Origin: Acidobacteriota bacterium
GTDB taxonomy: Bacteria > Acidobacteriota > Vicinamibacteria > Vicinamibacterales > 2-12-FULL-66-21
DNA length: 64,000 nucleotides
Assembly: GCA_031393955.1 (NCBI GenBank)
Contig: JANMWI010000046.1
Location: 185 to 64,184 of the forward strand
Direction: 5' to 3'
Shown here: piece after piece, positions 3,630 to 62,862 of the stretch
How positions within the stretch are numbered: the first letter of the stretch is position 1
How the letters are laid out: each line of letters begins with the position of its first letter
Position numbers and translations under genes: made by a program
Notes under the pieces: generated by a model
Told to the model about the DNA's origin: nothing
Seen by the model: the letters and a program-made list of their open reading frames with translations, nothing else
Databases searched by the model: none

Positions 3630-4446
3630 AGGCGACACCATCTTCCGAGCCGCCAGGACCCTCAAGCGCGCGCTCGCCGGCAAACTCGTCGTCCGCTTCG
3701 AATCGGCGCTGGCGGCCCTCGACCAGGTCCACGATCAATCCCCGATCACCGGCCGCACCGTGGACGACGTCGGGTCGGCCGGCAAGCACCTGCTGATGCA
3801 CTTTTCCGGCGGCCTGGTGCTGCGCACGCATATGCGGATGAACGGCAGCTGGCACATCTACCGGCCGGGCGAGCGCTGGCAGCGGCCGCGGCGCGACATG
3901 CGGGTGGTCGTCGCCACGGCGGACTTCGAAGCCGTCGGCTTCAAGATTCCGGTCGCCGAGTTCATCCGCTCGCGGGACCTGATGCGACATTCGGAGCTCG
4001 GTCAGCTCGGCCCGGATGTTTTGTCGGACGACTTCGACGCCGACGAGGTCCTGAGGCGGCTGCGCGGCAGAAGCGAGACGCCGATCGCCGACGCGCTGCT
4101 GAACCAGCGGCTGCTGGCGGGACTCGGCAACGTCTACAAGTCGGAAGTGTTGTTCATGTGCCGCGTCAGCCCGTTCGCGCCGGTGCGCAGCGTCGCCGAC
4201 GAGACGCTGTCGGCGATCGTGGCTACCTCGCAGCGGCTGCTGCGCGCCAACGTGACCGACCGGCTGGCGCCGATGACGACTTACACCGGGCTGCGGCGCA
4301 CCACCAACCGCGAGGATCCAACGGAGCGGCTGTGGGTCTACGGCCGCGCCCGGCTGCCGTGCCGCCGCTGCGGCACGCCGATCGGCGTCAGGAAACAAGG
4401 GCCGCATGCGCGCCTGACCTACTGGTGCCCGCAATGCCAGCCGTGA
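3622..4446 (+). CDS. nei: Fpg/Nei-family DNA glycosylase (endonuclease VIII-like)
   Basis: The N-terminus is MPEGDTI (Pro2/Glu3 of the Fpg/Nei family). An H2TH region 'LLNQRLLAGLGNVYKSEVLF' and a C-terminal zinc finger 'CRRCGTPI...YWCPQCQ' are present. The ATG overlaps the lhr stop by 8 nt (ATGCCTGA). Confidence 0.9.
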   Translation: MPEGDTIFRAARTLKRALAGKLVVRFESALAALDQVHDQSPITGRTVDDVGSAGKHLLMHFSGGLVLRTHMRMNGSWHIYRPGERWQRPRRDMRVVVATADFEAVGFKIPVAEFIRSRDLMRHSELGQLGPDVLSDDFDADEVLRRLRGRSETPIADALLNQRLLAGLGNVYKSEVLFMCRVSPFAPVRSVADETLSAIVATSQRLLRANVTDRLAPMTTYTGLRRTTNREDPTERLWVYGRARLPCRRCGTPIGVRKQGPHARLTYWCPQCQP

Positions 4447-4872: not shown

Positions 4873-7152
4873 TCAGCGGGCGTCGTGCAGGACCACCCGG
4901 ATGACGCCATCCGCGCCGGCGATTCTTTCCAGGACGACATCCGGACGGCGTGTCGCCGCCGTCCGCACCACACCGGCGGCGCGGTTGTCCGTCACCGGCT
5001 CGCCGCCGGTGCCGGCGGTGCCTGTCGTCGCGGCATGGTCGCCATGCTGGGCGCAGGGCTCCGCGGGGAGGGATCCCAGCGGGAAGAGGTCCTCGTAGAC
5101 TGGACTCTCGCCGTGGCGGAGCGCGCTCGCCGGCGCGGCTTCGTCACCATGGAACGCGTCGACCGGCACCATTCGCGGCGAGCCGCCGTCACTCGTCACG
5201 CTGTAGACGTCCGCCTGATGCCGGCACGCGTCGGTCGCGCGAGCGCCGCTCAGCCGGCACACCGACACCTTCTCGACGTCCGCCGGTATGGCGTACCAAT
5301 CGGGCTTGTCGCCGGCAGTCGCCGCGCGCATGAACCGCGCCCACGCCGGCACGGCGACCACCCCCGCGAAACCGCCGCGCATGATCGGCGCGGGACGGTC
5401 GAGCCCGAACCAGACGCCCGCGACGAGATGCGGCGTGTAGCCGACGAACCAGGCGTCTGCGTAGTCATCGGTCGTCCCCGTCTTGCCGGCCGCCGGCAGT
5501 GTGAAGCCGTCGCGCCGCACCGCCGCGCCGGTGCCGCCGCTGATGACCTCCGCCAGCATGCTGGACATCAGGAAGGCGGTCGTCGCGCTGACCGCCTGGG
5601 TATGGCGCTCGGGGGCCGCGTAGATCACCGTGCCGGCCGGATCTTCGACGCGCGTGATCAATCGTGGCGCGGCGACCCGACCGGCATTGGCGAATGCCGT
5701 ATAGGCGGCGGTCAGCTCCATCAGGGTCACCTCGCCGGTGCCGAGGGCGAGCGACGGCACCTGCGGCAGCGGTGACGCAATGCCGAGCCGCTGCGCGTAG
5801 TACACCGCCGTGCCGATGCCGACGCTCTGGAGGAGCTGGGCGGCGGCGCGGTTGCTCGAGACCTTGAGAGCGGCGCGGAGGGTGTACTCGTTTTCCTCGT
5901 GGCCGCCGCCCGGCAGCCAAGCGGCGTCGCCGGTGCCGATCGGCGTGTCGAGATCGTGCAGCATCGTGCCGGGGGCGTAGCCGCGCTCGAGCGCCGCGGC
6001 ATAGATGATCGGCTTGAACGCCGAGCCGGCCTGCCGCCGCGCCTGGGTCGCGCGATTGAAACTGCTGGCGGTGAAGTCGCGGCCGCCGACGAGCGCCCGC
6101 ACGTCTCCGGTCAGCGGATCCATCGCCACGAAGCCGCCCTGCAGATCGCGAGCGGCCGGACGCTTCTTGATGATGTCGGTAATCCGGGTCGTCAGTGCCA
6201 GCTCCGCCTCGCGCTGCATCGCCGGGTCGTACGTGGAGTAGACGCGAAGGCCGCCGCGCAGCATCTTGTCGGCGCCGAACAGGCCGAGCAGCTGGCGGCG
6301 GATTTCTTCCTGGAAGTAGAGGCCGGAGGCGGCGGCTGACGCGGGCTGCGCAAAAGATGCCGCGGCCACCGGCGAGGCGGCAGCGGTCCGGCCAGGGAGC
6401 GTCCGGGTCAGCGCGACGCGATACGCCTCGCCGTCCAGCCGCCCCTGGGCATGCATCAGGCGCAGGACGAGATTGCGGCGCTGCCGTGCCCGGCTCGGAC
6501 TGATCGACGGGGCGTCGACCGATGGCGAGCGGACGAGCGCCGCGAGGAGGGCCGCCTCGTGGGCATCGACGTCCGCGGCTGACTTGTGGAAGTAGCCGCG
6601 CGACGCCGCCTCGACGCCGTAATAGCCTTCGCCGAGGTAGACGGTGTTGAGGTACTCCTCGAAAATGCGCGCCTTCGAATAGCGCCGCTCGATCTGCGCC
6701 GCCAGCAGGATTTCGCGCAGCTTGCGGTCGTAGGTCCGGACCGGCGTCAACCGCACCGCCCTGGCGAGCTGCTGAGTGATCGTGCTCCCGCCTTCGACAA
6801 TCCGCCCGGCGCGGAAGTTGCGCAGTGCCGCGCCTGCGATCCGTAAGGGATCGATGCCGTGATGGCGGAAGAAGCGCCGGTCTTCAACGGACAGGACGGC
6901 GTCGATGATCCGCGGCGACATGCGGTCGAGCGGCACGTCGATGCGCTGTTCGGCAAAGAAGGTGAAGGTCGGCCGGCCGGCGCGGTCGAAGACGACCGTC
7001 GACTGCGCCCGCGGCGGCAGCTCGACCGTCGCGGCCAGATCGAGTTCACCGGCCACGCTGCGGGCCAGCTTCGCCGCTCGAAACGCCGCGGTCCACATGC
7101 CGGCGGTCATCAGCAGGACCGCAACAGTCACCGCGGCACGGCGCAGCATCAT
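4873..7152 (-). CDS. Class A penicillin-binding protein (transglycosylase/transpeptidase, PBP1A type)
   Basis: GT51 motifs 'EDRRFFRHHGIDP' and 'GGSTITQQLAR' are present. Transpeptidase motifs 'SAFKP' (SxxK) and 'KTGTT' are present. There is an N-terminal membrane anchor and a ~130-aa C-terminal extension. Confidence 0.92.
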   Translation of the reverse strand: MMLRRAAVTVAVLLMTAGMWTAAFRAAKLARSVAGELDLAATVELPPRAQSTVVFDRAGRPTFTFFAEQRIDVPLDRMSPRIIDAVLSVEDRRFFRHHGIDPLRIAGAALRNFRAGRIVEGGSTITQQLARAVRLTPVRTYDRKLREILLAAQIERRYSKARIFEEYLNTVYLGEGYYGVEAASRGYFHKSAADVDAHEAALLAALVRSPSVDAPSISPSRARQRRNLVLRLMHAQGRLDGEAYRVALTRTLPGRTAAASPVAAASFAQPASAAASGLYFQEEIRRQLLGLFGADKMLRGGLRVYSTYDPAMQREAELALTTRITDIIKKRPAARDLQGGFVAMDPLTGDVRALVGGRDFTASSFNRATQARRQAGSAFKPIIYAAALERGYAPGTMLHDLDTPIGTGDAAWLPGGGHEENEYTLRAALKVSSNRAAAQLLQSVGIGTAVYYAQRLGIASPLPQVPSLALGTGEVTLMELTAAYTAFANAGRVAAPRLITRVEDPAGTVIYAAPERHTQAVSATTAFLMSSMLAEVISGGTGAAVRRDGFTLPAAGKTGTTDDYADAWFVGYTPHLVAGVWFGLDRPAPIMRGGFAGVVAVPAWARFMRAATAGDKPDWYAIPADVEKVSVCRLSGARATDACRHQADVYSVTSDGGSPRMVPVDAFHGDEAAPASALRHGESPVYEDLFPLGSLPAEPCAQHGDHAATTGTAGTGGEPVTDNRAAGVVRTAATRRPDVVLERIAGADGVIRVVLHDAR

Positions 7153-7317
7153 CTCGCCGCGAGACTGAGCAACGCCGGTGCCAGCCTCGCGCAGCGGGAT
7201 CGCCTGTCACCGGCCCGTCCTACCCCTGCGGAACGCCCCGATCACGGCTCCGCGACGGAGGGTTCGCCGCCGGGAAGGCAGAGATGGGGAGGGGGTTACC
7301 TAGGAGCGGGTGTCAGG

Positions 7318-7388
7318 GTGCCAAGGTGCCGGGGTGCCAAAGTGCCAAAGTGCCAAAGTCCAAGGTGCCAAAGTGCCACGGTGCCAGG
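7318..7388. repeat. Nine tandem copies of a degenerate octanucleotide GTGCCARR (minus strand YYTGGCAC)
   Basis: Read directly: gtgccaag gtgccggg gtgccaaa gtgccaaa gtgccaaa gtccaag gtgccaaa gtgccacg gtgccagg. The array ends 4 nt from the stop codon (7393-7395) of the minus-strand DUF523/DUF1722 gene. It lies ~165-235 nt upstream of the PBP start at 7152. Confidence 0.9.
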
Positions 7389-7392
7389 TACT

Positions 7393-8376
7393 CTAAACAT
7401 GATTCCTCAGCATGAGCTCGCGCGGGTGGGGCTGGAGATAGACCTGGCCGGCGAGGTACTCGACCTGGTGGACGCGCACGTAGTGCGCGATCAGGGTCAG
7501 CGGTACGACCAGCGGCACCAGGCCCATGCGGTATTCCTCGATCGACGCGGCCAGCTCGCGGCGGGACGCCGCATCGAGCTTGTCCTTGAAGTGCCCGGCC
7601 ATGTGACTCAACACGTTGGTCTGCCGCCGTGTCGTTGCCGGCACCGCCAGCGTTTCCATGAAGATCCGTTCGTAGTCCGCGCGCAGCTCCGCCCGGCTGA
7701 CCGATTTGGCCGCCGCCACCAGACGGCCGAGCTCGTCGTAGCGGACGGTGGAATGCGCCAGCAGCGCCATTTTGTTGGCGGTGTGAAACCGGACCAGGTC
7801 GCCGATCGACCACTTCGATCCAAACAGGTCCTTGAGGCGCCGGTACGCGAACACCCGCTCGATGAAGTTTTCCCGGAGCCGCGGGTCGAAGAGCCGCCCT
7901 TCCTCCTCGACCGGCAGCAGCGGCATCCGGCCCAGCAGCGCCGCCGCGAAGAGTCCCCGGCCGTCGCGGACCCCGGGGCCGTCGGCGCCGTAAACCTTGA
8001 CGCGCTCCATGCCGCAGCTCGGCGAGTCCTTCTTGAGGACGTAGCCGTCGAGATTGGCGCCGGCGATCCTCCCGACCTGCGCGTCCGACCAGGCGGTCAT
8101 CCGGTCGGTCCAGTCGATCGCCGTCCGCGTCGTCACCATCCGGACGCCGCCGCCGGCGCGGACCAGCCGCAGCGTCTCCCGCGGCGTGCTCATCCCGACC
8201 TCGACCTCGGGACAGAGCGGGAGCCATTCGACGTGCGGTGCCAGGACGCCGGTCAGGAATGCATCCTTCTTGTGCCCGCCATCGAACCGGACCTCCTCGC
8301 CGAGCAGGCAGGCGGAGATCCCGATGCGAAGCGCCGCGGGACGCGCGGACGAGGCAGGGTCAGTCGAGGTGGTCAT
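7393..8376 (-). CDS. YbgA-like DUF523 + DUF1722 fusion protein
   Basis: 'RIGISACLLGEEVRFDGGHKKD' and 'KKDSPSCGMERVKVY' indicate the DUF523 part. 'FAYRRLKDLF...HTANKMALLAHS...HMAGHFK' indicates the DUF1722 part. I placed the start at the ATG for MTTSTDP (8376). The track ORF extends to 8472, but that extension is Arg/Pro-rich. Confidence 0.8.
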   Translation of the reverse strand: MTTSTDPASSARPAALRIGISACLLGEEVRFDGGHKKDAFLTGVLAPHVEWLPLCPEVEVGMSTPRETLRLVRAGGGVRMVTTRTAIDWTDRMTAWSDAQVGRIAGANLDGYVLKKDSPSCGMERVKVYGADGPGVRDGRGLFAAALLGRMPLLPVEEEGRLFDPRLRENFIERVFAYRRLKDLFGSKWSIGDLVRFHTANKMALLAHSTVRYDELGRLVAAAKSVSRAELRADYERIFMETLAVPATTRRQTNVLSHMAGHFKDKLDAASRRELAASIEEYRMGLVPLVVPLTLIAHYVRVHQVEYLAGQVYLQPHPRELMLRNHV

Positions 8377-18178: not shown

Positions 18179-19171
18179 ATGAAGCGTACGGCTGTCGCCG
18201 TCCTCGCCGCCGGCATCGCCGCGCCGTGGAACGGCGCGTCCTCACAGGCACCGGCGCCGCCAGCGGTCAACACCGACGCCCACTACCAGCTCGGTCCCGA
18301 CTCGCTGCCGCGGGAGGGGGTTCCGAAGGGGGACATCCGCGGTCCCTTCACGCTGCCGAGCCAGGCGTACCCCGGAACGCAGCACACCTACTGGGTCTAT
18401 GTGCCGGCCCAGTACGACTCGGCGGCGCCGGCCAGCCTGATGATCTTCAACGACGGCCAGGCGTTCAAGAACATGGACGGGGATGCCCGCGCTCCCTACG
18501 TCCTCGACAACCTGATCTACCGCCGCGAGATACCCGTCATGATCGGCGTGTTCATCAATCCCGGCCGGACGCCGGAGCAGCCCGAGCCGACGCCGCAGGA
18601 GTGGGGCGACCGCACCACCAACCGGCCGACCGAGTACAACACGCTCGACGACAAATACGCCCGTGTCATCGTCGACGAGCTGATGCCGGCGCTCTACAAG
18701 GACTACGCGATCGCGAAGGATCCCGAGCGGCACGGCATCGGCGGCGCGAGCTCCGGCGCGATTGCCGCCTTCACGGTCGCGTGGCAGCGGCCGGAGCAGT
18801 TCCACAAGGTCCTCAGTATCGTCGGCAGCTTCGTGAATCTGCGTGGCGGGCATGCCTACGCCGATCTGGTCCGGACGTCGCCGAAGAAGCCGATTCGGAT
18901 CTTCCTGCAGGATGGCCGCAACGACAATCGCGGCGTCGGCCGGGACGGCAACTACGACCAGGCGCGCGACTGGTTCTTCCAGAACGTCCGGCTGATGCAG
19001 GCGCTGACCGAGAAGGGCTACGACGTAAACTACACCTGGGGCATCGGCCGCCACGGGCAGAAGCAGGGGGGCGCGATCCTGCCCGAGATGCTGCGCTGGC
19101 TGTGGCGCGATCAGCCGGTGTCGGTCGACGTCAACGACGCCGTTGAGCGCAGCTTTCGCGACAAGCGCTAG
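18179..19171 (+). CDS. Secreted esterase-family alpha/beta hydrolase (enterochelin-esterase-like)
   Basis: The ATG at 18179 follows GGAGGG. The signal peptide is '[16 protein letters not shown]'. The nucleophile elbow is 'GIGGASSGA'. '[11 protein letters not shown]' is typical of this esterase family. Confidence 0.75.
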
Positions 19172-19186
19172 CCCCGACCGGGCCCG

Positions 19187-19268
19187 ATGGGGACACTCAC
19201 CTTTAGCGTAAGTCGTTGATTCAACAGGACGATTCTTCAAAAGTGGGCCGATCGCGGAGGAGTCCGGC
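19187..19268 (+). repeat. Solo left-arm copy (~80 bp) of the inverted-repeat element found at 22863-23010
   Basis: GGGGACACTCACCTTTAGCGTAAGT (19189-19213) matches 23 of 25 nt of the left terminus at 22863-22887. By hand alignment the following ~55 nt are about two-thirds identical to the interior of that element. No right-arm partner is nearby. The copy ends at the ATG of the next gene. Confidence 0.6.
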
Positions 19269-20513
19269 ATGGGCAGGGTGGATCGCATCAGCGGCATGGC
19301 CGCCATCGGGTTGCTGGCGCTGCTCGCGGCCGGGTGCCGCGGCAAGGAGGAGCCGGTGACGACGGCCGATCGCTTCGCCGCGGATCTGGCGTTTCTCCGT
19401 CAGCACTCGGAGATCGTGGTGCTCGGCGACGACGGCGGTGCCCGCGTCGCCGTCGCGCCCGCATATCAGGGGCGGGTGATGACGAGCACCACCGGGGGGG
19501 CCGGGGCGCCGAGCTTTGGCTGGATCGGGCGCGCCGCGATCACGGCGGGAGCCCGCCAGCCGCACATGAACGTCTTCGGCGGCGAAGATCGGTTCTGGCT
19601 CGGCCCCGAAGGAGGGCGCTACGCGCTCTATTTCAAGCCCGGGGACCCGTTCGATCTCGACCACTGGCAGACGCCGGAGCCGTTCGACTGGGGCGCGTGG
19701 GAGATCACCAGCCGGTCGCCGGCGCAGGTCGCGTTTCACAAGCGCATGTCGCTCGAGAATTACGCCGGCACGCACTTCGACGTCGAGGTCGAGCGGACGG
19801 TCCGCTTGCTGCCGCCGGCGGAAGCCGCCAGTCAGATCGGCGCCGCGGGAGACACCTCGCTGCGCATCGTCGCCTTCGAGTCGTCCAATACCGTGACGAA
19901 CGCCGGCGCGTCGGCCTGGCAGCGCGACGGCGGAATGGTCTCGATCTGGGTCCTCGGCCAGTTCACGCCGTCGCCGCGCACGACCGTCGTCATTCCGTTC
20001 GCTCCCGGCGCGGCAGCGACCGCCGGACCGGTCGTCAACGACAAGTACTTCGGACCGGTCCCATCCGACCGCCTCGCCATCGGCGACCACGCCCTGTTCT
20101 TCAAGGCCGACGGCCAGCACCGCGCGAAGATTGGACTGTCCCCGGCCCGCGCCCTCGACACCGCCGGCAGCTACGACGCCGACGGCGGCGTGCTGACCCT
20201 GGTCCAGTACACCCGGCCGGCCGGAAGCGCGGCATACGTGAACTCGATGTGGGATGCCGGCGCCGATCCCTATGCCGGCGACGTGGTGAACAGCTACAAC
20301 GATGGACCGGCGGCACCCGGCAAGCCGCCGCTCGGCCCGTTCTACGAGCTGGAGACCTCCTCCCCGGCGCTATCGCTGGCGCCAGGCGAACGCTACTCGC
20401 ATGTCCACCGGACGATGCATGTCAGCGGACCGCCAGCCGCGCTCGAGCGCGTCGCGCGGGCCGCGCTCAAGGTCGGCCTCGCGGAGATCACTTCCGCCTT
20501 CCCGTCGCACTGA
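19269..20513 (+). CDS. Hypothetical lipoprotein
   Basis: A lipobox 'LLAAGC' follows a signal sequence, and GGAGGA lies 8 nt upstream of the ATG. A conserved-looking 'GGEDRFWLGPEGG' segment is present. I could not assign a family from memory. Confidence 0.6.
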   Translation: MGRVDRISGMAAIGLLALLAAGCRGKEEPVTTADRFAADLAFLRQHSEIVVLGDDGGARVAVAPAYQGRVMTSTTGGAGAPSFGWIGRAAITAGARQPHMNVFGGEDRFWLGPEGGRYALYFKPGDPFDLDHWQTPEPFDWGAWEITSRSPAQVAFHKRMSLENYAGTHFDVEVERTVRLLPPAEAASQIGAAGDTSLRIVAFESSNTVTNAGASAWQRDGGMVSIWVLGQFTPSPRTTVVIPFAPGAAATAGPVVNDKYFGPVPSDRLAIGDHALFFKADGQHRAKIGLSPARALDTAGSYDADGGVLTLVQYTRPAGSAAYVNSMWDAGADPYAGDVVNSYNDGPAAPGKPPLGPFYELETSSPALSLAPGERYSHVHRTMHVSGPPAALERVARAALKVGLAEITSAFPSH

Positions 20514-20531
20514 GCGGCAACTGGAGATCCT

Positions 20532-21911
20532 ATGAAGCGCCGTGACGCTCTTCGCTCACTGACTCTGGCCGGTGGCGCCTCGCTGCTGACCGCCGGCCGC
20601 TCGCTGGGCCAGGCGATCGCCCCGGCGAGGACGGCGGCCGAAACCCAGGCGCGGCAAGGCGCCGGAACGGTCAAGATTCGCGACATCACGACGATCGTGA
20701 CCGCTCCCAATCGCATCCGGCTCGTCATCGTCAAGATCGACACCACCGAGCCGGGGCTGGTCGGCTGGGGCTGCGCCACGTTCACGCAGCGGGCGCTCGT
20801 CGTCCAGACTGCGCTCGAGCAGTACCTCAAGCCGTTCCTGCTCGGCCGCAACGTCGACGAGATCGAGGACATCTGGCAGTCGAGTTATGTGAGTTCCTAC
20901 TGGCGCAACGGCCCGGTGCTGTTCAATGCCATGAGCGGCATCGACATGGCGCTCTGGGACATCAAGGGCAAGCGCGCCGGGATGCCGGTCTATCAGTTGC
21001 TCGGCGGCAAGGTGCGGCAGGGGGCCGACTGCTACTTCCACGCCAGCGGCAGCAGCTTCACGGAAGTCGAGGACAGCGCGCGCAAGGCGATGGAACAGGG
21101 CTTCCGTCACGTGCGCGTGCAGGTGGCGACGCCCGGCTATGCGGGCTACGGAGCGGGCGGCGGGCGAGCCGCCGGCGCCGGCGTAGCGGACCCGATCGTT
21201 GGACCGACGAATCCGCAGGCGATCTGGGAATCAGGCCCTTACGTCCGCATGGTGCCGAAGTTCTTCGAGTATCTGCGCGGCAAGCTGGGCGACGAGGTCG
21301 AGCTGCTGCACGACGTGCACGAGCGGGTGACGCTGAATCAGGCGATCAACCTGTGCAAGGCGCTCGAGCCGTATCGTCTCTTCTTTCTCGAGGATCCGTT
21401 CCCGCCGGAGGAGAACGATCATTTCCGCATCCTCCGCCAGCAGACCAGCGTCCCGATCGCGATGGGTGAGCTGTTCAACTCGCAGCACGAGTACGTGCCG
21501 CTCATCAAGGAGCGGCTGATCGACTTCATCCGGATTCACATTTCACAGATCGGCGGATTGAGCCCGGCGCGCAAGGTCGCGGCGTTCAGCGAGTTCTTCG
21601 GCGTCCGTACCGCCTGGCATGGTCCGGGCGATGCGTCGCCGATCGCCCACGCCGCGCAGCTCGCGCTGGAGCTGGCCAGCTACAACTTCGGCGTCCACGA
21701 GGGCAGCGGCTTTCCGAAGGAGACGCAGGAGGTCTTTGTCGGCTGCCCCGAGGTCAAGAACGGCTACATGCTGGCGCAGGAGAAGCCCGGGCTGGGTATC
21801 GACGTCGACGAGAAGCTGGCCGCGAAATTCCCGGCCCCTGCGGGTCCACCCAACTTCGATTATTCGTGGGGGACGACGCGGCGGCGGGACGGAACCGTGA
21901 TCAGGCCATAG
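20532..21911 (+). CDS. Enolase-superfamily dehydratase, D-mannonate dehydratase (ManD/RspA)-like, with Tat-type signal
   Basis: The N-terminus is 'MKRRDALRSLTLAGGASLLTAGRSLGQA'. 'GLVGWGCATFTQRA' and 'NAMSGIDMALWDIKGKRAGMPVYQLLGG' match the ManD subgroup. Confidence 0.85.
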   Translation: MKRRDALRSLTLAGGASLLTAGRSLGQAIAPARTAAETQARQGAGTVKIRDITTIVTAPNRIRLVIVKIDTTEPGLVGWGCATFTQRALVVQTALEQYLKPFLLGRNVDEIEDIWQSSYVSSYWRNGPVLFNAMSGIDMALWDIKGKRAGMPVYQLLGGKVRQGADCYFHASGSSFTEVEDSARKAMEQGFRHVRVQVATPGYAGYGAGGGRAAGAGVADPIVGPTNPQAIWESGPYVRMVPKFFEYLRGKLGDEVELLHDVHERVTLNQAINLCKALEPYRLFFLEDPFPPEENDHFRILRQQTSVPIAMGELFNSQHEYVPLIKERLIDFIRIHISQIGGLSPARKVAAFSEFFGVRTAWHGPGDASPIAHAAQLALELASYNFGVHEGSGFPKETQEVFVGCPEVKNGYMLAQEKPGLGIDVDEKLAAKFPAPAGPPNFDYSWGTTRRRDGTVIRP

Positions 21912-21938
21912 GATCGCGACAGCAACGGGACGTCTGAT

Positions 21939-22880
21939 ATGAATGATCCGGTGACCCGGCGGACATTTCTCGGCGCCGCGCTCGCCGCGGCGGCGGTGAG
22001 CTCTCGGATGGAAGCGCGCGCGATGGACATGCTCGACTGCCACACCCATTTCTACGATCCGGGCCGTCCGCAGGGGGTGCCGTGGCCCGACAAGTCCGAC
22101 CGACAGCTGTATCGCCCGGTCTATCCTCGCGACTACCAGGTGCTGGCGTTGCCGCTGGGGATCACCGGTACCGTCGTCGTCGAAGCCAGCGAGTGGGTGG
22201 CGGACAACGACTGGATCCTCGACCTCGCGACAAGCGAGCCGCTGATCAAGGGATTCGTCGGGCGGCTCGAGCCAGGCGCGGCCGAATTCGGGAGCGGCGT
22301 CGAGCGCCTCGCGAAGAATCCCACGTTCCGCGGCATCCGCGTCAGCGGCCGGGAGGTCGCGTCGCTCACGGAGCCGCGGCGGCTGAACGACCTCGCCGTG
22401 CTGGCGGATCGCGGCCTGGCGCTGGACGTCAACGGCGACATCTCCTCACTGCCGACCGTCGCCGCGGTGGCGCGGGCGGTGCCACGGCTGCGGATCGTCA
22501 TCGATCACGTCGCCAACGTGCGCATCGATGGCGGGCCGCCGCCGTCCGACTGGCAGGACGGCATGGGCGCCGCCGCGACGCGGTCCAACGTCTTCTGCAA
22601 GGTTTCGGGATTGGTCGAGGGCACCGGCCGGCGCGGCGGCCAGGCGCCGGCGGATCCGGCGTTCTACCGGCCGGTCCTGGACGCGGTGTGGCGGATGTTC
22701 GGCGATGAGCGGGTCATCTTCGGCAGTAACTGGCCGGTCAGCGAAGTCTTCGCGCCGCTGGCCACCGTCGTCGGCATCGTGCGGCAGTACGTCGCCACCC
22801 GCGGCGCCGAGGCCGAGCGCCGCTACTTTGCCGGCAACGCCCGCACCGCCTACTTCGCCCATGGGGACACTCACCTTTAG
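21939..22880 (+). CDS. Amidohydrolase_2 family protein (sugar-lactonase-like) with Tat signal
   Basis: The Tat motif is 'TRRTFLGAALAAAA'. 'DCHTHFYDP' is the metal-binding start of the amidohydrolase_2 fold. The last six codons and the stop (HGDTHL*) lie inside the left inverted repeat of the 22863-23010 element. Confidence 0.8.
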   Translation: MNDPVTRRTFLGAALAAAAVSSRMEARAMDMLDCHTHFYDPGRPQGVPWPDKSDRQLYRPVYPRDYQVLALPLGITGTVVVEASEWVADNDWILDLATSEPLIKGFVGRLEPGAAEFGSGVERLAKNPTFRGIRVSGREVASLTEPRRLNDLAVLADRGLALDVNGDISSLPTVAAVARAVPRLRIVIDHVANVRIDGGPPPSDWQDGMGAAATRSNVFCKVSGLVEGTGRRGGQAPADPAFYRPVLDAVWRMFGDERVIFGSNWPVSEVFAPLATVVGIVRQYVATRGAEAERRYFAGNARTAYFAHGDTHL

Positions 22881-23010
22881 GCTAAGTTACTGAATCCAAA
22901 GGCCAACTCTCGGAATGTGGACGGATCGACTGAGGCTCCGTGGCCGATCCGGGCTCATTTCGGGATTGCTCGTTACAGTTCAACAACTTAGCCTAAAGGT
23001 GAGTGTCCCC
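22863..23010. mobile_element. 148-bp MITE-like element or long hairpin bounded by perfect 25-bp terminal inverted repeats
   Basis: The left arm GGGGACACTCACCTTTAGGCTAAGT (22863-22887) is the exact reverse complement of 22986-23010. By hand count the 98-nt interior is ~54% G+C, clearly below the flanks. It contains an inner 7-bp stem, CGGATCG (22923-22929) pairing with CGATCCG (22944-22950). No obvious target-site duplication is present. Confidence 0.6.
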
Positions 23011-23767
23011 GTTTGAGGCAGGCGAGCTGGCGGTCAGGTGTGACGCGCTGCACAAGCGCTACGGCGGCGTCGTCGCGGTCGACGGCCTGACGCTGCACGT
23101 CCGGCGCGGCGAGTGCTTCGGCCTGCTCGGGCCGAACGGCGCCGGCAAGACCACCACCATCGAGATCCTCGAAGGGCTGCTGACCCCCGACAGCGGCGAG
23201 GTCGAGATCCTCGGCCGCCGCTGGCGTCACCACGAGCGTGAGCTGCGGGAGCGCCTCGGCATCCACCTCCAGGAAACACAGCTCAGCGACAAGCTCACCG
23301 TCGAGGAGATGCTCCGGCTATTCCGCTCGTTCTATCGGCGCGGTCTGCCGATCGCCGAGCTCCTCGACATCGTCGCGCTCGAGAGCAAGCGGCGCAGCCG
23401 CGTCGGCACGCTGTCCGGCGGACAGAAGCAGCGTCTGTCGCTGGCTTGCGCGCTCGCGGGACGTCCCGACCTGCTGTTTCTCGACGAGCCGACCACCGGC
23501 CTCGACCCGCAGTCGCGCCGCCAGCTCTGGGACGTCCTCGAACGCTTTCGCGGCGACGGCGGGACCATCCTGCTGACGACGCACTACATGGATGAAGCGC
23601 AGACCCTCTGCGACCGCGTCGCGGTGGTGGATCACGGCAAGCTAATCGCGCTCGGCACGCCGCGGGAGCTCATCGCGACCCTCGCGGCGCCCCGCACGAT
23701 CGTCCAGCAAGGCACGCTCGAAGACGTCTTCATGTCGCTCACCGGACGGCACCTGCGCGATGAATAA
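23003..23767 (+). CDS. ABC transporter ATP-binding protein
   Basis: Walker A is 'GLLGPNGAGKTT', the signature is 'LSGGQKQRL' and Walker B is 'LLFLDEPTTGLD'. The only canonical in-frame start is GTG at 23003, directly after an in-frame TGA. That GTG lies inside the right inverted repeat. Confidence 0.9.
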   Translation: MSPFEAGELAVRCDALHKRYGGVVAVDGLTLHVRRGECFGLLGPNGAGKTTTIEILEGLLTPDSGEVEILGRRWRHHERELRERLGIHLQETQLSDKLTVEEMLRLFRSFYRRGLPIAELLDIVALESKRRSRVGTLSGGQKQRLSLACALAGRPDLLFLDEPTTGLDPQSRRQLWDVLERFRGDGGTILLTTHYMDEAQTLCDRVAVVDHGKLIALGTPRELIATLAAPRTIVQQGTLEDVFMSLTGRHLRDE

Positions 23768-24812
23768 GGTGGACCGCGGCGGCGCCCATCACCCCATCAT
23801 CGAGCTGACGCTGACGCGCGTGCGCGAATTCGTCCGCGAGCCGGAGGCGCTCTTCTGGACGTTCGTGTTCCCGATCGTCATGGCGCTGGTGATGGCGATG
23901 GCGTTTCCGTCGCGCGCCGCGCAGCCCGTCCAGGTCGGCATCGTCGCGGGCGCGGCGTCGGAGACGATCAGAAAGTCGCTCGCCAACGCACCCGGGCTGG
24001 CGGTGCGCGAGATTGCGCCCGGCGAGGAGCAGCGCGCGCTGCGTGAAGGGCGCGTTCACGTGCTCGTGCTCCCGACCGAGCCGCCGACTTATCGCTTCGA
24101 CGCCGCTCGCGGCGAGAGCCGCACCGCGCGGCTGGTCGTCGACGATGCCCTGAAGAGAGCGGCCGGGCGGACGGACCCGTGGACGGCGCGCGAGGAAGCG
24201 GTCGAGGTCCCGGGGTCGCGCTATGTCGACTGGCTGATTCCAGGGCTCGTCGGCATGGGCATCATGAGCAACGGCATGTGGGGGGTGGCGTTCTCCATCG
24301 TCCAGGCGCGGATGCGGAAGCTGCTGAAGCGGATGGTGGCGAGCCCGATGCAGAAGCGCGACTACCTGCTGGCGCTGCTGCTCGCGCGGCTGCTCTCGCT
24401 CGGACCGGAGGTCGCGGTCCCGCTCGGCTTCGGGGTGCTGGCCTTCCACATGCCGGTGCACGGCACCGTCGCGTCGATTGCCGCCGTGGCGGTGCTGGGC
24501 TCGCTCGCGTTTGGATCGTTCGGCCTGCTGCTGGCGACGCGCGCGCGGACGTTCGAAGCCGTCTCCGGGCTGATGAACCTGGCGATGCTGCCGATGTGGC
24601 TGCTGAGCGGCGTCTTCTTCTCCTCCTCAAATTTCCCGGAGGTGATGCAGCCGTTCATCCGGGCGCTGCCGCTGACGGCACTCGTCGACAGCCTCCGCGC
24701 CGTGACGCTCGAGGGGGCCGGCGTGACCTCGCTCGGCGCTCCGCTGCTGGTCCTCGCCGCCTGGACGGTCGTCCCGTTCGGCCTCGCGCTGCGATTCTTC
24801 CGCTGGCGCTGA
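23760..24812 (+). CDS. ABC-2 type transporter permease
   Basis: A polytopic membrane protein whose start overlaps the ATPase stop by 8 nt (ATGAATAA). It has the ABC-2 topology of one N-terminal helix, a large loop, then five helices. Confidence 0.8.
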   Translation: MNKVDRGGAHHPIIELTLTRVREFVREPEALFWTFVFPIVMALVMAMAFPSRAAQPVQVGIVAGAASETIRKSLANAPGLAVREIAPGEEQRALREGRVHVLVLPTEPPTYRFDAARGESRTARLVVDDALKRAAGRTDPWTAREEAVEVPGSRYVDWLIPGLVGMGIMSNGMWGVAFSIVQARMRKLLKRMVASPMQKRDYLLALLLARLLSLGPEVAVPLGFGVLAFHMPVHGTVASIAAVAVLGSLAFGSFGLLLATRARTFEAVSGLMNLAMLPMWLLSGVFFSSSNFPEVMQPFIRALPLTALVDSLRAVTLEGAGVTSLGAPLLVLAAWTVVPFGLALRFFRWR

Positions 24813-24821
24813 GATAGCCCG

Positions 24822-24845
24822 GCCGGCGCGTCGCCGCGCGCCGGC
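24822..24845 (+). terminator. GC-rich stem-loop downstream of the ABC-2 permease
   Basis: GCCGGCGCG (24822-24830), a tcgccg loop, and CGCGCCGGC (24837-24845) form a 9-bp perfect stem 10 nt after the stop. There is no U-tract, so terminator function is uncertain. Confidence 0.3.
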
Positions 24846-24854
24846 ACTCCCGCC

Positions 24855-24883
24855 TTGACAACATTCCCCCCTGACGGCAGACT
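24855..24883 (+). promoter_or_regulatory. Candidate sigma70-type promoter for the TonB-dependent receptor
   Basis: A perfect TTGACA (24855-24860) is followed by 17 nt and a weak CAGACT. It lies 77 nt upstream of the ATG at 24932. Confidence 0.2.
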
Positions 24884-24931
24884 GCGCAGCGCGCACGATA
24901 TCCATCATCCAGTGACGAGGGGAACAGCCCG

Positions 24932-27900
24932 ATGAAGCAGGTACAAGGACTTGCGGCCGTGCTACTGACCGTCGCCGCCGTCATCTTCCCGGCGCCGCTT
25001 GCCGCACAGGTCACGACCGGCACCATCGTCGGCACCGTCAGCGACCCCGGCGGCGTCGTCCCCGGCGCCAGCGTGACGATCCGGGAAGTCAGTCGCGGCA
25101 CGGCGGACACCGTCGTTACTGACAGCGCCGGCAGCTACACCGCGCCGTTCCTGTCGCCGGGCACCTACACGGTCGAAGTGAACGTCGCGGGCTTCAAGAA
25201 GTGGGTCCGCGCCGGCGTCGTTCTGCAGGTCAACCAGCGGGCGCGGGTCGATGCCGACCTCGAGGTCGGCGGCGTGACCGAGACGACGACCGTGACGGCG
25301 TCGGCACCGCTCCTCCGGACCGAGTCCTCCGAGGTCGGCACCGTCATCGAGGAGCGCGCGATCAAGGAACTGCCGCTGAACGGCCGGAACTTCGCGACGC
25401 TCGTCTATCTCACGCCCGGCATCACGCCCGGACAGGCGAACGAGAACCTCTCCGGGGCCAGCACCTTCAACCCGCGCGGCGCCTCGAACTTCAATGCCCT
25501 CGGACACCAGGCGAACGCCAACGCCTGGCTGCTCGACGGCATCGACAACAACGAGTACAGCTTCAACACCGTCATCGTCGCGCCGTCGGTCGAGCAGGTG
25601 CGGGAGTTCAAAGTGCTGTCGGGAGTCTTCTCCGCCGAGTTCGGCCGCGGCGCCGGCGTCGTCTCGGTGGCGACCAAGTCCGGCAGCAACGTCATGCACG
25701 GCACGGTGTTCGAGTACCTGCGCGACGACCGCTTCGACGCGCGCAACTTCTTTGTCCGCAAAGTCGCTCTGCCCGGCGGTGGCCTGAAGGTCGATCCCAA
25801 GCCGCCGCTCAACCGCCACCAGTTCGGCGGCGCCACCGGCGGGCCGCTCGTCATCCCCGGACTCTACGACGGGCACAACCGCACGTTCTTCTTCGCCGAT
25901 TACGCCGGCCTCAAGGAGACGCGCGGCCAGGTCTTCGTCAACACCGTCCCGACCGCGCAGACGCGCGGCGGCGACTTCAGCGACTTCCGCGACGCCGCCG
26001 GCAACCTGATTCCGATCTACGACCCGCTGACGACGCGGCTGAATCCGGCGTTCGACGCGTCGCGGCCGGTCGGCGCCTCGAACCCGCAGTTCCTGCGCGA
26101 CCCGTTCCCCGGCAACATCATTCCGCAGAGCCGCATGAATCCGGTCGGGCGCAACGTCGCCAGCATCTATCCGCTGCCGAACGGCCCCGGCAACTTCAAC
26201 AACTACACCTCGACCGTCAACCGCGAGGTGACCGATAACGTCTTCTCCGGCCGCATCGACCACAAGGTCTCCGACAAGTCGTCGCTGTTCGTGCGCTTCA
26301 ACTGGGGCCGCTTCAAGCTCGATGCGCCGCAGGGCCAGGCCGCCTGCTGCCTGCCGACCCCCGCCGACGCCGCGTCGCGCTTCGACCTCGGTCCGTTCGT
26401 CGCCGGCATCCAGAACACGCGGCTGACGACGCACGGCGCCGCCTTCAACTATTCGCGCGTGCTGAGCCCCCGGTTCGTCAACGAGCTGCGGCTTGGCTAC
26501 GCCCGCACCCAGCCGTTCACGTTCCAGTCCGACTTCGGGACGCACGCGGCCGACTCGCTCGGCATCCGCGGCATCAACGTCACCGAATTCACCACCGGGC
26601 TGCCGAACATCAACATCCCGGACCTGACCGGCATCTCCGGCGGCCCGGCGTTCCTGCCGGTCAACCCGAAGCAGTTCCACTGGCAGGCCGAAGACGCGCT
26701 GGTCTGGCTCAAGGGCCACCACCAGCTCAAGGTCGGCTACCGGCTGGTCGACCGCTACCCGTCGCCGTTCACCAACACCGACACCCGCGGGACGATCAAC
26801 TTCGGCCGCAACTACACCAACAACCCGATCACCAACGGCGGCGGCTCCGGCCTCGCCTCGCTCCTGACCGGCTACATCAACAACGCCGCGCGCGGCTTCC
26901 TGCTCGAACCGTACACGCTGCGTACCCAGGAGCACGGGATGTTCCTCCAGGACGACGTCAAGCTGACGCCGCGGTTCACGGTCAACGCCGGGGTCCGCTA
27001 CGAGATCTTCCGTGCCGAGACCGAGGAGCACAACAAGATCGTCAACTTCGATCCGGTCGGACTACGGCTGATCTACGCCGGTGAGGATGGCGCCAGCCGC
27101 TCGGTCAACAAGAAGACGCAGTTCGGCAACATCGCGCCGCGGCTCGGGCTGACCTACGACCTCTTCGGCAACGGCGCCACCATCCTGCGGACCGGGTTCG
27201 CCATCACCTACTTCCCGGTACAGCCGTCGGCGTCGAACATGATCGGCCAGCAGGTCCCGTACACGATCTCGCAGAACGTCAGCTTCGCGACCAATCCGAC
27301 CGACTTCTCAGCGGTCCGCACCATCGACGATCCGTTCCCGGCGATCGCCGCCGTCAAGCCGCGCACCACCGCCGAGCTGCAGGCCGCGAATCCGCGCGTC
27401 CTCGGTCATTCGTTCGCGAACGAGACCCCCTACGCCGAGCAGTGGCACCTCGGTGTCGAGCGGCGGGTGCTGCCGACGATGGCGGTGGAGCTGACGTATG
27501 CCGGCAGCGCCGGCAAACACCTGGTCTACTGCTACAACCCGAATGAAGTGCAGCCCGGAGTCGGCTCGCAGGAATCGCGGCGGCTGATCCAGCCGCTCAA
27601 CCGGCTGAGCAACATGGTGCAGTGCGACCCGCGCAACCGCTCGACCTATCACAGCGGCCAGCTCAAGGTGACGCAGCGCTTCAGCGGCGGCGTCCAGTTC
27701 CTGGTCAGCTACACCTACGGCAAGGCGCTCGACTACGGCGGATCGGCAGCGAGCGGCGGCGGCGCGGTCGGCAATCCCCAGACCGTCACCAACCTCGCGG
27801 CCGGTCATGGCCCGTCGGGCTTCGACGTGCGCCACCGCGCGGTCGTCAGCGGCGTCTGGGAGCTGCCGTGGGGCGCCGGCCGGCACTGGCTGTCGAGCGG

Positions 27901-60898: not shown

Positions 60899-62269
60899 TT
60901 AGTTCGCGAGCGCGGATGCGAATTTCGGCGTCATCAGCGCCGACGCGAAGCCGTCGCTCTGAAGCGCCTGGGCGAACGCCGCCGACTGCATCGCCTTCGG
61001 CAGGGCGCCATCCGCCAGTGCGCGGCGGAACGCGTCGGAGCTGAGCGCCCGGGCGAAGCTGTCGTTGCTGAGCGCCCGCGCCACCGCCGGGTCGGAGAAC
61101 GCCCGCGCAATCGCCGGATCCGCCATCGCCCGCATCATCGCGCCGTCGCTGAGCGCTTTCGCGATCGCCGGATCGGCCAGCGCGCGGCCGAGCGCATCGC
61201 TGGTCAGCGCCCGCGCGACCATCGCATCGCCAAGTGCCCTCGCCAGCGCCTCGTTGCTGAGCGCCCTGGCGGCGGCGTCGTTGCCGAGCGCCCGCCGGAC
61301 CGCGTCGTTGCTGAGCGCTCTCGCGGTGACGGCGTCGGTCGTTGCGGCACGCGCGGCGGCGCCGTCGGCGCTCGCCCGAATCTTGGCCTCGGCGCTAATC
61401 GCCCGCGCCATCAAGGGATCCGACAACGCCTGCACCAGCGCCGGGTCCGCAATGGCGCGGCGGAAGCCCGGGTCGGCCAGCGCGCTGGCCATCCCCTTGC
61501 TCGCCAGCGCCTGCGCGACCGCCTGGTCGGACAGCGCCCGCGCGACCGCCGGATCGGCCAGCGCGGCGCGGAAGTTGGCATCGGCCATCCGGGCGGCGAG
61601 CGCCGGCTCGGCGAGCGCGCCAGCCATCCCCTTGCTCGCCAGCGCCTGCGCGACGGCCTGATCCGACAGCGCCTGCGCGATCGCCGGATCCGACAGCGCC
61701 GCGACGACCGCGGGATCCGCCAGCGCCTGCCGGACGGCGCCGTCCGACAGCAGCTTGCGGGCGTTTTCATCCTTGATCAGGCGATCGAAGGTGTCGCTCT
61801 GCAGGAACTGCTGCGCCGACGTGTCGCCAAGCTTCACGTCCGACGCCGCCATCTGCGGCTCGGCCGCCTGATAGCGGGCCGCCTGCCCGATCGTTCCTTC
61901 CGTCCCCTTGCCGGTCGGGGGGTAGCCCAGAATCGCAAACGTTACGAGAACGACCGCCGCGGCCGCGGCCAACCCGATCATTGTCTTTTTTGCCATGAAC
62001 CTGTCTCCTTGGTCAGTGCGCCCGGCCGCAACACCGCCACCGATCCGACCTGTCACCGCTCGAACCGTCGCCGCAGCCAGATCTTGGGGCGGCGCGACGG
62101 TTCCGAGTTCTTCGACCAGCGCCGTCAATGCCCGCAGCTCCGACAGCCGGGCGCGCGCCTCGGCATTGCCCGCCACACGGCGCTCCCACTCCACCTGCTG
62201 CTCCCGCGTCAGCTCGCCGTCGACGGCGGCGTGCAGCAGTTCGTCGTCTGAAGGATCCACTGGGCTCAT
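60899..62269 (-). CDS. Anti-sigma factor: N-terminal sigma-binding domain, single TM helix, extracytoplasmic domain of ~34 nonapeptide repeats
   Basis: The ATG at 62269 overlaps the sigma-factor stop (ATGA). 'LLHAAVDGELTREQQVEWERRV...ARARLSELRAL' is an RskA/zf-HC2-like domain lacking Cys/His ligands. The TM helix is 'TMIGLAAAAAVVLVTFAILGY'. A 306-aa repeat domain follows. Confidence 0.75.
   Translation of the reverse strand: MSPVDPSDDELLHAAVDGELTREQQVEWERRVAGNAEARARLSELRALTALVEELGTVAPPQDLAAATVRAVTGRIGGGVAAGRTDQGDRFMAKKTMIGLAAAAAVVLVTFAILGYPPTGKGTEGTIGQAARYQAAEPQMAASDVKLGDTSAQQFLQSDTFDRLIKDENARKLLSDGAVRQALADPAVVAALSDPAIAQALSDQAVAQALASKGMAGALAEPALAARMADANFRAALADPAVARALSDQAVAQALASKGMASALADPGFRRAIADPALVQALSDPLMARAISAEAKIRASADGAAARAATTDAVTARALSNDAVRRALGNDAAARALSNEALARALGDAMVARALTSDALGRALADPAIAKALSDGAMMRAMADPAIARAFSDPAVARALSNDSFARALSSDAFRRALADGALPKAMQSAAFAQALQSDGFASALMTPKFASALAN
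60902..61819 (-). repeat. In-frame 27-nt periodic coding repeat (34 nonapeptide units, consensus about [DP]-A-h-x-[RQ]-A-L-[SA]-[DN])
   Basis: I parsed the translation by hand into SAQQFLQSD/TFDRLIKDE/NARKLLSDG/AVRQALADP/AVVAALSDP/AIAQALSDQ/AVAQALASK/GMAGALAEP/.../DGFASALMT/PKFASALAN. There is one single-residue register shift near 'AVTARALSND'. The period also shows in the antisense track ORF 60896..62251. Confidence 0.85.
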
Positions 62270-62862
62270 CGTTCCATCCACATCGTCAGGGCGCCGGCGA
62301 GCTGCTGGCGCGCGCTGTAAAGCCGCGACTTCACGGTTTTGACCGGAATCCCGATCGCGTCGCTCATCTCGTCGTAGCTGAGCGACGCAAAGTGCCTGAG
62401 GACGATGACTTCACGGTACGGCGCCGGGAGCGTCAGGATGGCGCGCTTGACATCCCGCCGCCGTTCCGCCGTCTCGACCGCGTCCGGCTCCTGGTGCCGC
62501 GCCGCCGCCGCGTCCAGTCCGCCGTCGAGAAGCACCATCGCCGGCCGCCGCCGCAGGTTGAGGCACTCGTTGGTCAGGATGCGGTAAATCCAGCTGAAAA
62601 AGCGCCGGTCCGCGTCGTAACTGGAGAGCTTCTCGTAGGCCCTGATGAAGGCGGTCTGGGCGGCGTCGCGGGCATCCTCTTCATTGCCGAGCATCCGCAG
62701 CGCGACGTTGAAGAGCACCCCTTGATACCGGACCACGAGCGCCGCGAACGCCGCGCCGTCGCCGTCCAGACACCGTCGGACGACAACCGCATCGTCCAGG
62801 CTCTGGTCCAAATACACCGCAGGGGCTGGAAAGTTGGTGGGCAACGGGCCGAACCTTACCAT
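62266..62862 (-). CDS. ECF (group 4) RNA polymerase sigma factor
   Basis: Region 2 is 'AFAALVVRYQGVLFNVALRMLGNEEDARDAAQTAFIRAYEKL...FFSWIYRILTNECLN'. Region 4 is 'LPAPYREVIVLRHFASLSYDEMSDAIGIPVKTVKSRLYSARQQL'. The start is at ATG 62862 or GTG 62817. The further-upstream part of the track ORF is Arg/Pro-rich. Confidence 0.9.
   Translation of the reverse strand: MVRFGPLPTNFPAPAVYLDQSLDDAVVVRRCLDGDGAAFAALVVRYQGVLFNVALRMLGNEEDARDAAQTAFIRAYEKLSSYDADRRFFSWIYRILTNECLNLRRRPAMVLLDGGLDAAAARHQEPDAVETAERRRDVKRAILTLPAPYREVIVLRHFASLSYDEMSDAIGIPVKTVKSRLYSARQQLAGALTMWMER

Follow-up and report, generated by a model that had tools for sequence, protein, structure and literature searches.

A probable REPIN-like doublet from which two neighbouring genes of an Acidobacteriota bacterium take a stop and a start codon

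Introduction

In a 64,000-nucleotide stretch of DNA from an Acidobacteriota bacterium (assembly GCA_031393955.1, contig JANMWI010000046.1, positions 185 to 64,184; hereafter the window), the gene of an L-fuconolactonase-like amidohydrolase (the lactonase) and the gene of an ATP-binding cassette (ABC) transporter ATPase are joined by a 148-bp element with inverted termini, from which the first gene takes its stop codon and the second its start codon. This raises the question of what kind of element it is, how long it has been there and what it does to the genes it joins. A preliminary description of the locus had offered two readings, a miniature inverted-repeat transposable element (MITE) that inserted between the genes and remodelled both of their ends, or a structured element whose stem would bury the downstream start codon. 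From comparison with related loci (cited by their L numbers), we consider it highly probable that the element is a REPIN-like inverted doublet of a repeat unit family associated with a RAYT-like Y1/HUH tyrosine transposase, of the TIRYT/TIRtron class, in Vicinamibacterales-type Acidobacteriota.

A hairpin at the lactonase/ABC ATPase junction

The features at the junction are listed below (SD, Shine-Dalgarno; HMM, hidden Markov model).

21939–22880, plus strand: Amidohydro_2 / L-fuconolactonase-like gene; last five codons (GDTHL) and TAG (22878–22880) from the left arm
22863–23010, unstranded: inverted doublet (REPIN-like), 148 bp, of a ~45-nt repeat unit, with a 26-bp perfect terminal stem
22863–22903, plus strand: left unit (arm), GGGGACACTCACCTTTA-GGC-TAAGTTACTGA...; arm HMM match at 22861–22903, E 5e-13; all three inward frames stopped
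22904–22971, unstranded: variable interior or spacer, 59–69% identical to the orthologue in L043, about the neutral level
22972–23010, minus strand: right unit (arm), inverted; arm HMM match at 23015–22972, E 1e-13; read outward it gives TAA-AGGTGA-GTG, that is, a stop, an SD-like stretch, TGA and GTG
23003–23767, plus strand: ABC transporter ATPase gene; start GTG (23003–23005) inside the right arm

The sequence GGGGACACTCACCTTTAGGCTAAGT at 22863–22887 is the exact reverse complement of 22986–23010; the expectation of a 25-nt match is 0.00, and 0 of 100 dinucleotide-preserving shuffles of the window gave any. The 25-bp perfect inverted termini first reported are thus real, and the perfect pairing even extends to 26 bp (22863–22888 with 22985–23010). 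With two 66-nt arms of 76% complementarity, the 148 nt as a whole make up an imperfect palindrome, and no other inverted repeat of the 64-kb window comes near it in strength. The in-silico fold that the preliminary description had proposed returns one long RNA hairpin of −84 kcal/mol, against −43.6 ± 3.5 kcal/mol for shuffled sequences (z = −11.5). The G+C content is 53.4% for the element and 54.1% for its interior, matching the earlier hand count of ~54%, against 66–72% for the window. The immediate flanks of the doublet are CCAT and GTTT.

A dispersed repeat family

The arms belong to a repeat unit of ~45 nt that reads (A)AAAT-GGGGACACTCACCTTTA-SSS-TAAGTNGTTGA, after which come an A/T-rich stretch and AGG. 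Across all loci we count 137 distinct units, which form 40 distinct inverted doublets of 86–186 bp (mode 92–95 bp), the remainder being singlets or three-unit clusters (L041, L099, L148, L026 and L015). Their hosts are metagenome-assembled genomes (MAGs) of Acidobacteriota/Vicinamibacterales and soil metagenomes. The element is not a one-off, as the copy count suggested in the preliminary description makes clear: the 18-mer GGGGACACTCACCTTTAG is found 32 times in an Acidobacteriota MAG of ~8 Mb (CAVVOD01) and 9 times in a second MAG (JALZOC01), and the CAVVOD tiles alone, a 248-kb sample taken around these matches, contain 52 units. Two occurrences of the 18-mer in Caldilineae, with no match beyond it, were discarded as chance. 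A degenerate 17-mer brought up 104 metagenome stretches, from which the arm profile singled out 48 soil-metagenome loci with true members, the rest being chance 17-mer matches. No match to the repeat was found in the viral contigs searched, and a literature search for a 13-mer of the unit returned only an unrelated primer match.

Units disperse in unrelated contexts, in both orientations, at the 5′ and 3′ ends of genes and also as unpaired singlets. In most doublets perfect pairing ends at 17 bp, because the three central S bases are non-complementary between the arms; with 26 bp, the window copy is the most perfect of the 40. Covariation analysis of 16 short doublets was uninformative because the arms are nearly invariant. 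Another unit lies upstream of the junction in the window itself:

19189–19229, plus strand: singlet of the ~45-nt unit (GGGGACACTCACCTTTAGCGTAAGTCGTTGATTC...), between an esterase gene (stop 19171) and a DUF6786 gene (ATG 19269)

This singlet has 2/25 mismatches to the arm and no partner, and L035 and L043 keep it at the esterase/DUF6786 junction, which lacks it in L156.

The earlier reading of a mobile element whose insertion remodelled both gene ends is correct in essence: the family is multi-copy and element-free orthologues have different termini. The element is neither a classical MITE nor a recent arrival, as set out below.

Two side observations concern the arrangement of units. Positions 103–151 of L099 and 3590–3640 of L031 are near-identical and differ by a 49-nt tandem duplication of half an element plus 6 nt of flank (CCTAAY), giving a three-unit cluster; similar offsets of 48–49 nt are seen in L041 and L026. 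These alignments suggest that unit clusters grow by local duplication. In L002 (5365–5885) two inverted singlets surround a 98-aa open reading frame (ORF) with no Pfam match (MTLQEFTSSTKQ...); the upstream FtsX/MacB-like gene stops at the TAA that belongs to the TAAAT flank, and the SD and ATG of the next gene directly follow the other arm.

Age and conservation of the window copy

Orthologous loci indicate that the copy is old. In L042 (GCA_031365625), which is 99.4% identical to the window, the element has one substitution, and in L043, 82.7% identical over 8.9 kb, a 148-bp doublet occupies the lactonase/ABC junction. The lactonase DNA of L046 and L047 is 73–74% identical and ends in each case in a left arm with the minority GGC centre, where the contigs break. 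In L044 and L045 (80% identical) a decayed, G+C-enriched remnant is left, whose fold is by now no better than that of shuffled sequences (z −1.4) and which still gives a stop (TAA) and a start (GTG). Presence of the doublet at the same junction in lineages that are 73–83% identical argues against a recent insertion; by this comparison, the window copy was in place before those lineages diverged. Orthologous loci were also examined for absence of the element, as the preliminary description had suggested: L035 (CAVVOD) and L156 carry the gene cluster without the doublet, with a lactonase end ...AYKW...* and an ATPase start VHDLAV.... For the gap upstream of an outer membrane protein (OMP) gene, L007 was tried as an empty-site comparison and rejected; it shares only the OMP gene and the locus is not orthologous.

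Conservation is uneven along the element. Between the window and L043 the two 25-nt arms agree at 47/50 positions and the inner right arm at 18/20, with 59–69% identity in the interior and 72% at the third codon positions of the ABC ATPase; that is, the arms (~94%) are more conserved than near-neutral sites and the interior drifts. Other orthologous pairs between the two MAGs likewise have near-identical arms and unalignable interiors. One paired change in the arms of L043, from C:G to T:A, is the C12T variant, which occurs in all three arms of the L043 genome. In this small sample, the shared variant points to concerted evolution of the family and not to selection at the RNA level.

A Y1/HUH transposase flanked by the units

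A search of all ORFs of the loci with an approximate E. coli RAYT sequence as query picked a single ORF. This ORF, in L032, begins ~30 nt within a unit and has a Y1_Tnp domain (PF01797, E 3e-9) with the HUH motif PNHFHFVLWP. In L157 and in L158 and L159, the latter two from a Vicinamibacterales MAG, one unit lies ~95–105 nt upstream of a Y1_Tnp gene of 229–231 aa and another, inverted, extends over the 3′ end of this gene, in the same neighbourhood (OEP-DAO-Y1_Tnp-Peptidase_M14); one flank each is seen on the partial contigs of L032, L152 (upstream unit) and L153 (downstream unit). The only NCBIfam match of the Y1_Tnp proteins is to the REP-associated tyrosine transposase (NF047646 equivalog, E ~1e-17 down to 3e-21), and the only PDB match is E. 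coli TnpA-REP (4ER8, E 6e-5). Most likely, the family is mobilised or maintained in trans by this putatively single-copy RAYT-like Y1/HUH tyrosine transposase.

An insertion sequence with a DDE transposase and GGGGACACTCACC... termini was sought in the ~0.93 Mb of loci and none was found. Widely spaced inverted unit pairs were considered as candidates for an autonomous DDE element and rejected, all of them enclosing ordinary genes: 2.8 kb in L036 (NfeD, Band_7, OYE), 3 kb in L011 (sulfatases), 0.9 kb in L070 (adenylate-kinase-like) and 0.5 kb in L002 (the 98-aa ORF).

Two further Y1 transposases are worth recording on their own. In L155 a different inverted repeat, GGGGACATTCAAGATTATC, lies at 2940–2965 and 3668–3694 around a more distant transposase (P0122) that is 54% identical, a second TIRtron with a related GGGGACA end. 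In L154 an unrelated perfect palindrome, AAAAAGGTGGCTGGCACCTTT...AAAGGTGCCAGCCACCTTTTT, is found on both sides (1390–1435 and 2115–2160) of the Y1 transposase P0177; it is REP-like and does not consist of terminal inverted repeats (TIRs).

Classification against known systems

The preliminary description had recognised no known element family, which has to be revised: its features, the GGGGWSAS end motif among them, place the family with the published TIRYT/TIRtron class. In the passages of Di Nocera et al. (2013, BMC Genomics 14:522, PMC3733652) on which we draw, TIRYT genes are RAYT-like and flanked by long TIRs ("TIRtrons") that share this motif, the repeats are present as single, dimeric and grouped copies, and a sharply defined acidobacterial TIRYT clade (tsa392, aba1552/3447, acp645, gma794) covers Koribacter, Terriglobus, Acidobacterium and Granulicella. 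Set beside those passages, the present family agrees in having a RAYT-like Y1/HUH gene between inverted repeats, one of which lies over the 3′ end of the gene (here in L157–L159), in arms that all start with GGGGACAC and so fit GGGGWSAS, in moderate abundance with single, dimeric and grouped copies, and in the host phylum Acidobacteria. It differs in that the hosts here are Vicinamibacterales-type MAGs, and the published TIRs were compared by motif and description only; moreover, those passages report no copy whose neighbours took it over for their stop and start.

The family also resembles repetitive extragenic palindromic (REP) sequences and their doublets, the REPINs, as they are characterised in the portions of Bertels & Rainey (2011, PMC3116915) and RAREFAN (10.1101/2022.05.22.493013) used here. 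Shared traits are the non-autonomous hairpin doublets of inverted short repeats, in many copies and with singlets too, the extragenic position tight against genes without target-site duplication, the syntenic Y1 transposase flanked by repeats, and the long persistence at orthologous sites, REPINs being mostly vertically inherited over millions of years. They differ in copy number, with tens of copies per genome here and not hundreds.

Several observations weigh against the classification proposed here. The unit lacks the 5′ GTAG (or CGTC) tag of REPs and starts with GGGG instead; it measures ~45 nt against 20–40 nt and alone forms no strong palindrome, only TTTA-SSS-TAAG. The absence of GTAG and the weak palindromy of the unit show that it is not a classical REP. 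The Y1_Tnp proteins score below the RAYT equivalog cut-off (32–76 against 80 bits), and the unit-flanked transposase is one of loci of relatives. No clean insertion/empty-site pair was found among close relatives, the only recent polymorphism being the 49-nt tandem duplication of half an element. Finally, the arms, which in L043 all share the C12T variant, could owe their conservation to a host function or to gene conversion and not to recognition by a transposase.

Other comparisons were dropped. Sigma-54 or extracytoplasmic function (ECF)-type promoter readings of the unit, made by eye, were rejected, the spacing being unfit for sigma-54 and units facing the 3′ and the 5′ ends of genes equally often. 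The copies are dispersed and not arrayed, which spoke against integron attC and Xer/dif-like sites. A resemblance to Tn3-family ends, which we take to read GGGG...ACGCTAAG, was rejected on account of different lengths and the lack of a 5-bp duplication.

Correia elements (NEMIS) of Neisseria are intergenic, ~100–155 bp long with inverted termini of ~26 bp, and form co-transcribed hairpins that affect the expression of neighbouring genes. Their interior contains a match to the integration host factor (IHF) consensus; they have TA target duplications and no association with a Y1 transposase. The window element is similar in size, in termini of about this length and in intergenic position, with no sequence similarity and in a different host. 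The inner part of the unit, AATCAACAACTTA / TTCAACAACTTA (for example window 22976–22988, top strand), fits WATCAANNNNTTR, which we take to be the IHF consensus of E. coli.

Stop and start codons taken from the repeat

The lactonase ORF ends ...AYFAH|GDTHL*, and the left arm opens with 18 nt of it, GGG GAC ACT CAC CTT TAG. The earlier statement that the left arm encodes the last six residues and the TAG is right for the TAG and off by one for the residues, of which there are five, since the H (CAT, 22860–22862) lies outside the arm. Its other statement, that GTG 23003 is the sole canonical start of the ABC ATPase after an in-frame TGA, holds: that TGA (23000–23002) directly precedes the GTG, and no other ATG, GTG or TTG is found before the conserved LAVRCDALHKRYGG. 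An SD-like AAAGG lies at 22995–22999. In the nine codons that follow the GTG of the arm, most of the changes among the window, L043 and L044 are synonymous (CCG/CCC, GAG/GAA, GCA/GCG/GCC, GGC/GGT), a pattern which shows that the region is translated and, together with the in-frame TGA just upstream, that the arm GTG must be the start.

The homologues show what the element has changed. Lactonase C-termini read GDTHL* or, in another frame, GGHSSL(S/G)* where the element is present and AYKW..R* where it is not; in element-free orthologues the ABC ATPase starts with VHDLAV..., and the corresponding GTG is GCA in the window.

Such borrowing is in keeping with the make-up of the unit, which read inward has its stops TAG, TAA and TGA at positions 16, 21 and 29, respectively; in many copies the TAAAT flank adds a further TAA. 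The stop of an incoming gene falls within −9 to +31 of the first G in 31 of the 137 units, 12 of them with the stop inside the unit and 12 with it at −4/−3; the 12 inside stops make stop supply a trait of the family. A long ORF is in frame with the outward GTG in 10 units, and only in the window/L042/L043 lineage is there no nearby alternative start.

An old repeat copy thus now supplies the stop of one gene and the start of the next, which is neat and not unprecedented. An ancestor would have acquired the doublet right at the 3′ end of the lactonase gene, at a time when the ABC gene had a start of the VHD... form, as in element-free relatives. Both genes would then have come to use the TAG or TAA of the repeat as stop and its GTG as start, presumably because the unit has stops in all inward frames and an outward TAA-AGGTGA-GTG.

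Alternative origins of the element

Among alternatives, the one that survives best is that the host keeps the units at gene boundaries as bidirectional transcription terminators or as hairpins that stabilise mRNA, with a secondary association with the transposase. It is favoured by the G/C-rich stem base between AAAAT...ATTTT, by the clustering of neighbour stops at −4/−3 or inside the unit, by the conservation of the arms beyond the neutral level, and by L005 and L021, in which doublets take up all of the space between two convergent genes, both of whose stops lie 2–4 nt from the element. Against this, a promoter and terminator scan of 18900–25200 found no site at the element; the G+C-rich stem followed by a T-run that makes an intrinsic terminator is lacking, the flank being GTTTGAGG, with a short and interrupted T-run. 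Singlets, which are unable to form the hairpin, are equally conserved, and one lineage let its copy decay and kept the gene order. Moreover, efficient termination in the window would silence the exporter genes, because the downstream start codon lies inside the hairpin. We therefore regard a host-kept terminator family as improbable.

A classical MITE, that is, a deletion derivative of an insertion sequence with a DDE transposase that recently inserted between the two genes, would account for a short, multi-copy element with terminal inverted repeats that is A+T-richer than its surroundings, and short-read contigs do break inside the element, L046 and L047 ending in the arm. However, target-site duplications of 2–9 bp were present in 0 of the 40 doublets, whose flanks are inverted (AAAT...ATTT) and not direct; half units are common and stand at conserved orthologous sites; the wide inverted pairs enclose ordinary genes (NfeD-Band7-OYE, sulfatases, adenylate kinase); the only transposase beside units is the Y1/HUH enzyme; and the insertion is older than ~20–27% nucleotide divergence. 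This leaves the classical MITE very improbable.

Equally hard to credit is a dedicated structured RNA (attenuator, insulator or riboswitch-like) evolved for this operon: a very stable hairpin does hold the stop, the SD-like stretch and the start, and it is kept in L043 with one paired C:G to T:A change, but the unit is dispersed in unrelated contexts and both orientations with singlets unpaired, the interior evolves at about the neutral rate with many pairs broken, the seemingly compensatory change is the C12T present in all three arms of the L043 genome, and Rfam gave no match at the gathering threshold over the whole window and, at E ≤ 1 around the element, only the plant MIR918, a generic long-hairpin miRNA whose 44.5 bits against a threshold of 268 are meaningless.

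Possible translational coupling

Whatever its origin, the REPIN-like doublet may act on the genes it joins. The genes between 18104 and 28354 are all on the plus strand with short gaps, which makes co-transcription likely. Folding is consistent with the earlier suggestion of an ABC start buried in the stem: both the SD-like stretch and the GTG are predicted to be paired with a probability of ~1. In a 270-nt RNA context the predicted probability of an unpaired GTG was 0.00 without constraint and 0.84 when 22863–22893 was held single-stranded, as by a ribosome at the TAG; a ribosome ten codons before the TAG gave no release of the GTG in the same kind of folding. On a polycistronic mRNA the hairpin of −84 kcal/mol would sequester the GTG together with its SD-like stretch, the stem would melt when a ribosome reaches the TAG of the left arm and terminates there, and translation of the ABC ATPase would be coupled to that of the lactonase and not independently initiated.

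In mRNA-structure coupling such as that of the coat and replicase genes of phage MS2, the downstream start is paired with the upstream ORF and opened only by ribosomes translating the upstream gene. The likeness of the window to this case is one of predicted folding behaviour; it differs in that the pairing partner comes from a repeat element and that the stem is of unusual length, with 26 bp perfectly paired and 123 nt separating stop and start.

Two observations weigh against a gate. No more than 3 nt separate the GTG from the SD-like stretch, and of the 58 predicted pairs 10 are broken and 3 compensated in L043, the interior pairs not being conserved. Termination, processing at the hairpin or no effect at all are the alternatives to coupling. 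On these folding results we offer coupling of ABC ATPase translation to lactonase translation as a tentative possibility and not as the expected outcome.

The family-wide distribution of the unit argues that the hairpin did not evolve for gating. A stronger version, in which the doublet was exapted as a coupler or gate, so that production of the exporter ATPase would require ribosomes to complete the lactonase ORF and open the 26-bp stem, with selection keeping the perfect stem and the conserved right half and with the family providing ready-made gene-boundary modules of inward stops and outward SD plus GTG, seems to us unlikely.

Other repeats in the window and related loci

Further repeats were noticed outside the family. 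In the window, about ten tandem copies of the octamer GGTGCCAA (also with 16- and 31-nt periods) lie at 7309–7386, in a gap of ~900 nt from the gene boundary at 7152 to the gene at 8054, and 27-nt (9-codon) tandem repeats of up to 8.4 copies lie at 61073–61759, within a predicted minus-strand gene (60899–62281).

Intergenic heptamer arrays (CAGCTCT / CAGCTGT / CAGCCAT), often as two inverted blocks, were seen in L156 (6090–6240), L035 (5041–5066), L004 (4780–4870) and L018 (beside the arm at 151). Some are inside or beside doublets, and that of L156 is just upstream of the ABC ATPase gene, at the place of the window doublet; these arrays may be a second repeat family. In L006 (2320–2390) a (GGGATTC/GGGACTC)n array follows a singlet arm. 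Heptamers of CACGGAG type form an inverted pair in L035 (6270–6470) between an FG-GAP-like gene and the ABC ATPase gene, and this region holds GTGTCCCCGT and CCCCGTTTGAG, which resemble the outer end of the arm and the window flank. The ABC ATPase orthologue of L035 (6549–7299) is split over two frames (ORFs 6549–6890 and 6571–7299), probably by an indel error of long-read assembly and not as a pseudogene.

Significance

Nearly all work on REPIN/RAYT-type repeats has dealt with Pseudomonas, enterobacteria and Stenotrophomonas; to these is added here a well-delimited family in uncultured soil Vicinamibacterales, with its unit, doublets and transposase locus defined. For annotation, the repeat leaves recognisable marks, namely ORFs that end in GDTHL* or GGHSSL(S/G)*, or start with (M/V)SP(F/Y), beside GGGGACAC, and short-read contigs tend to break at it. 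The junction described here is a clear case of host genes borrowing the stop and start codons of a repeat and keeping them across species, a tidy example and not a surprise. If the hairpin does couple translation of the two genes, the junction would also be a simple instance in which a selfish repeat has rewired the expression of an operon from within.

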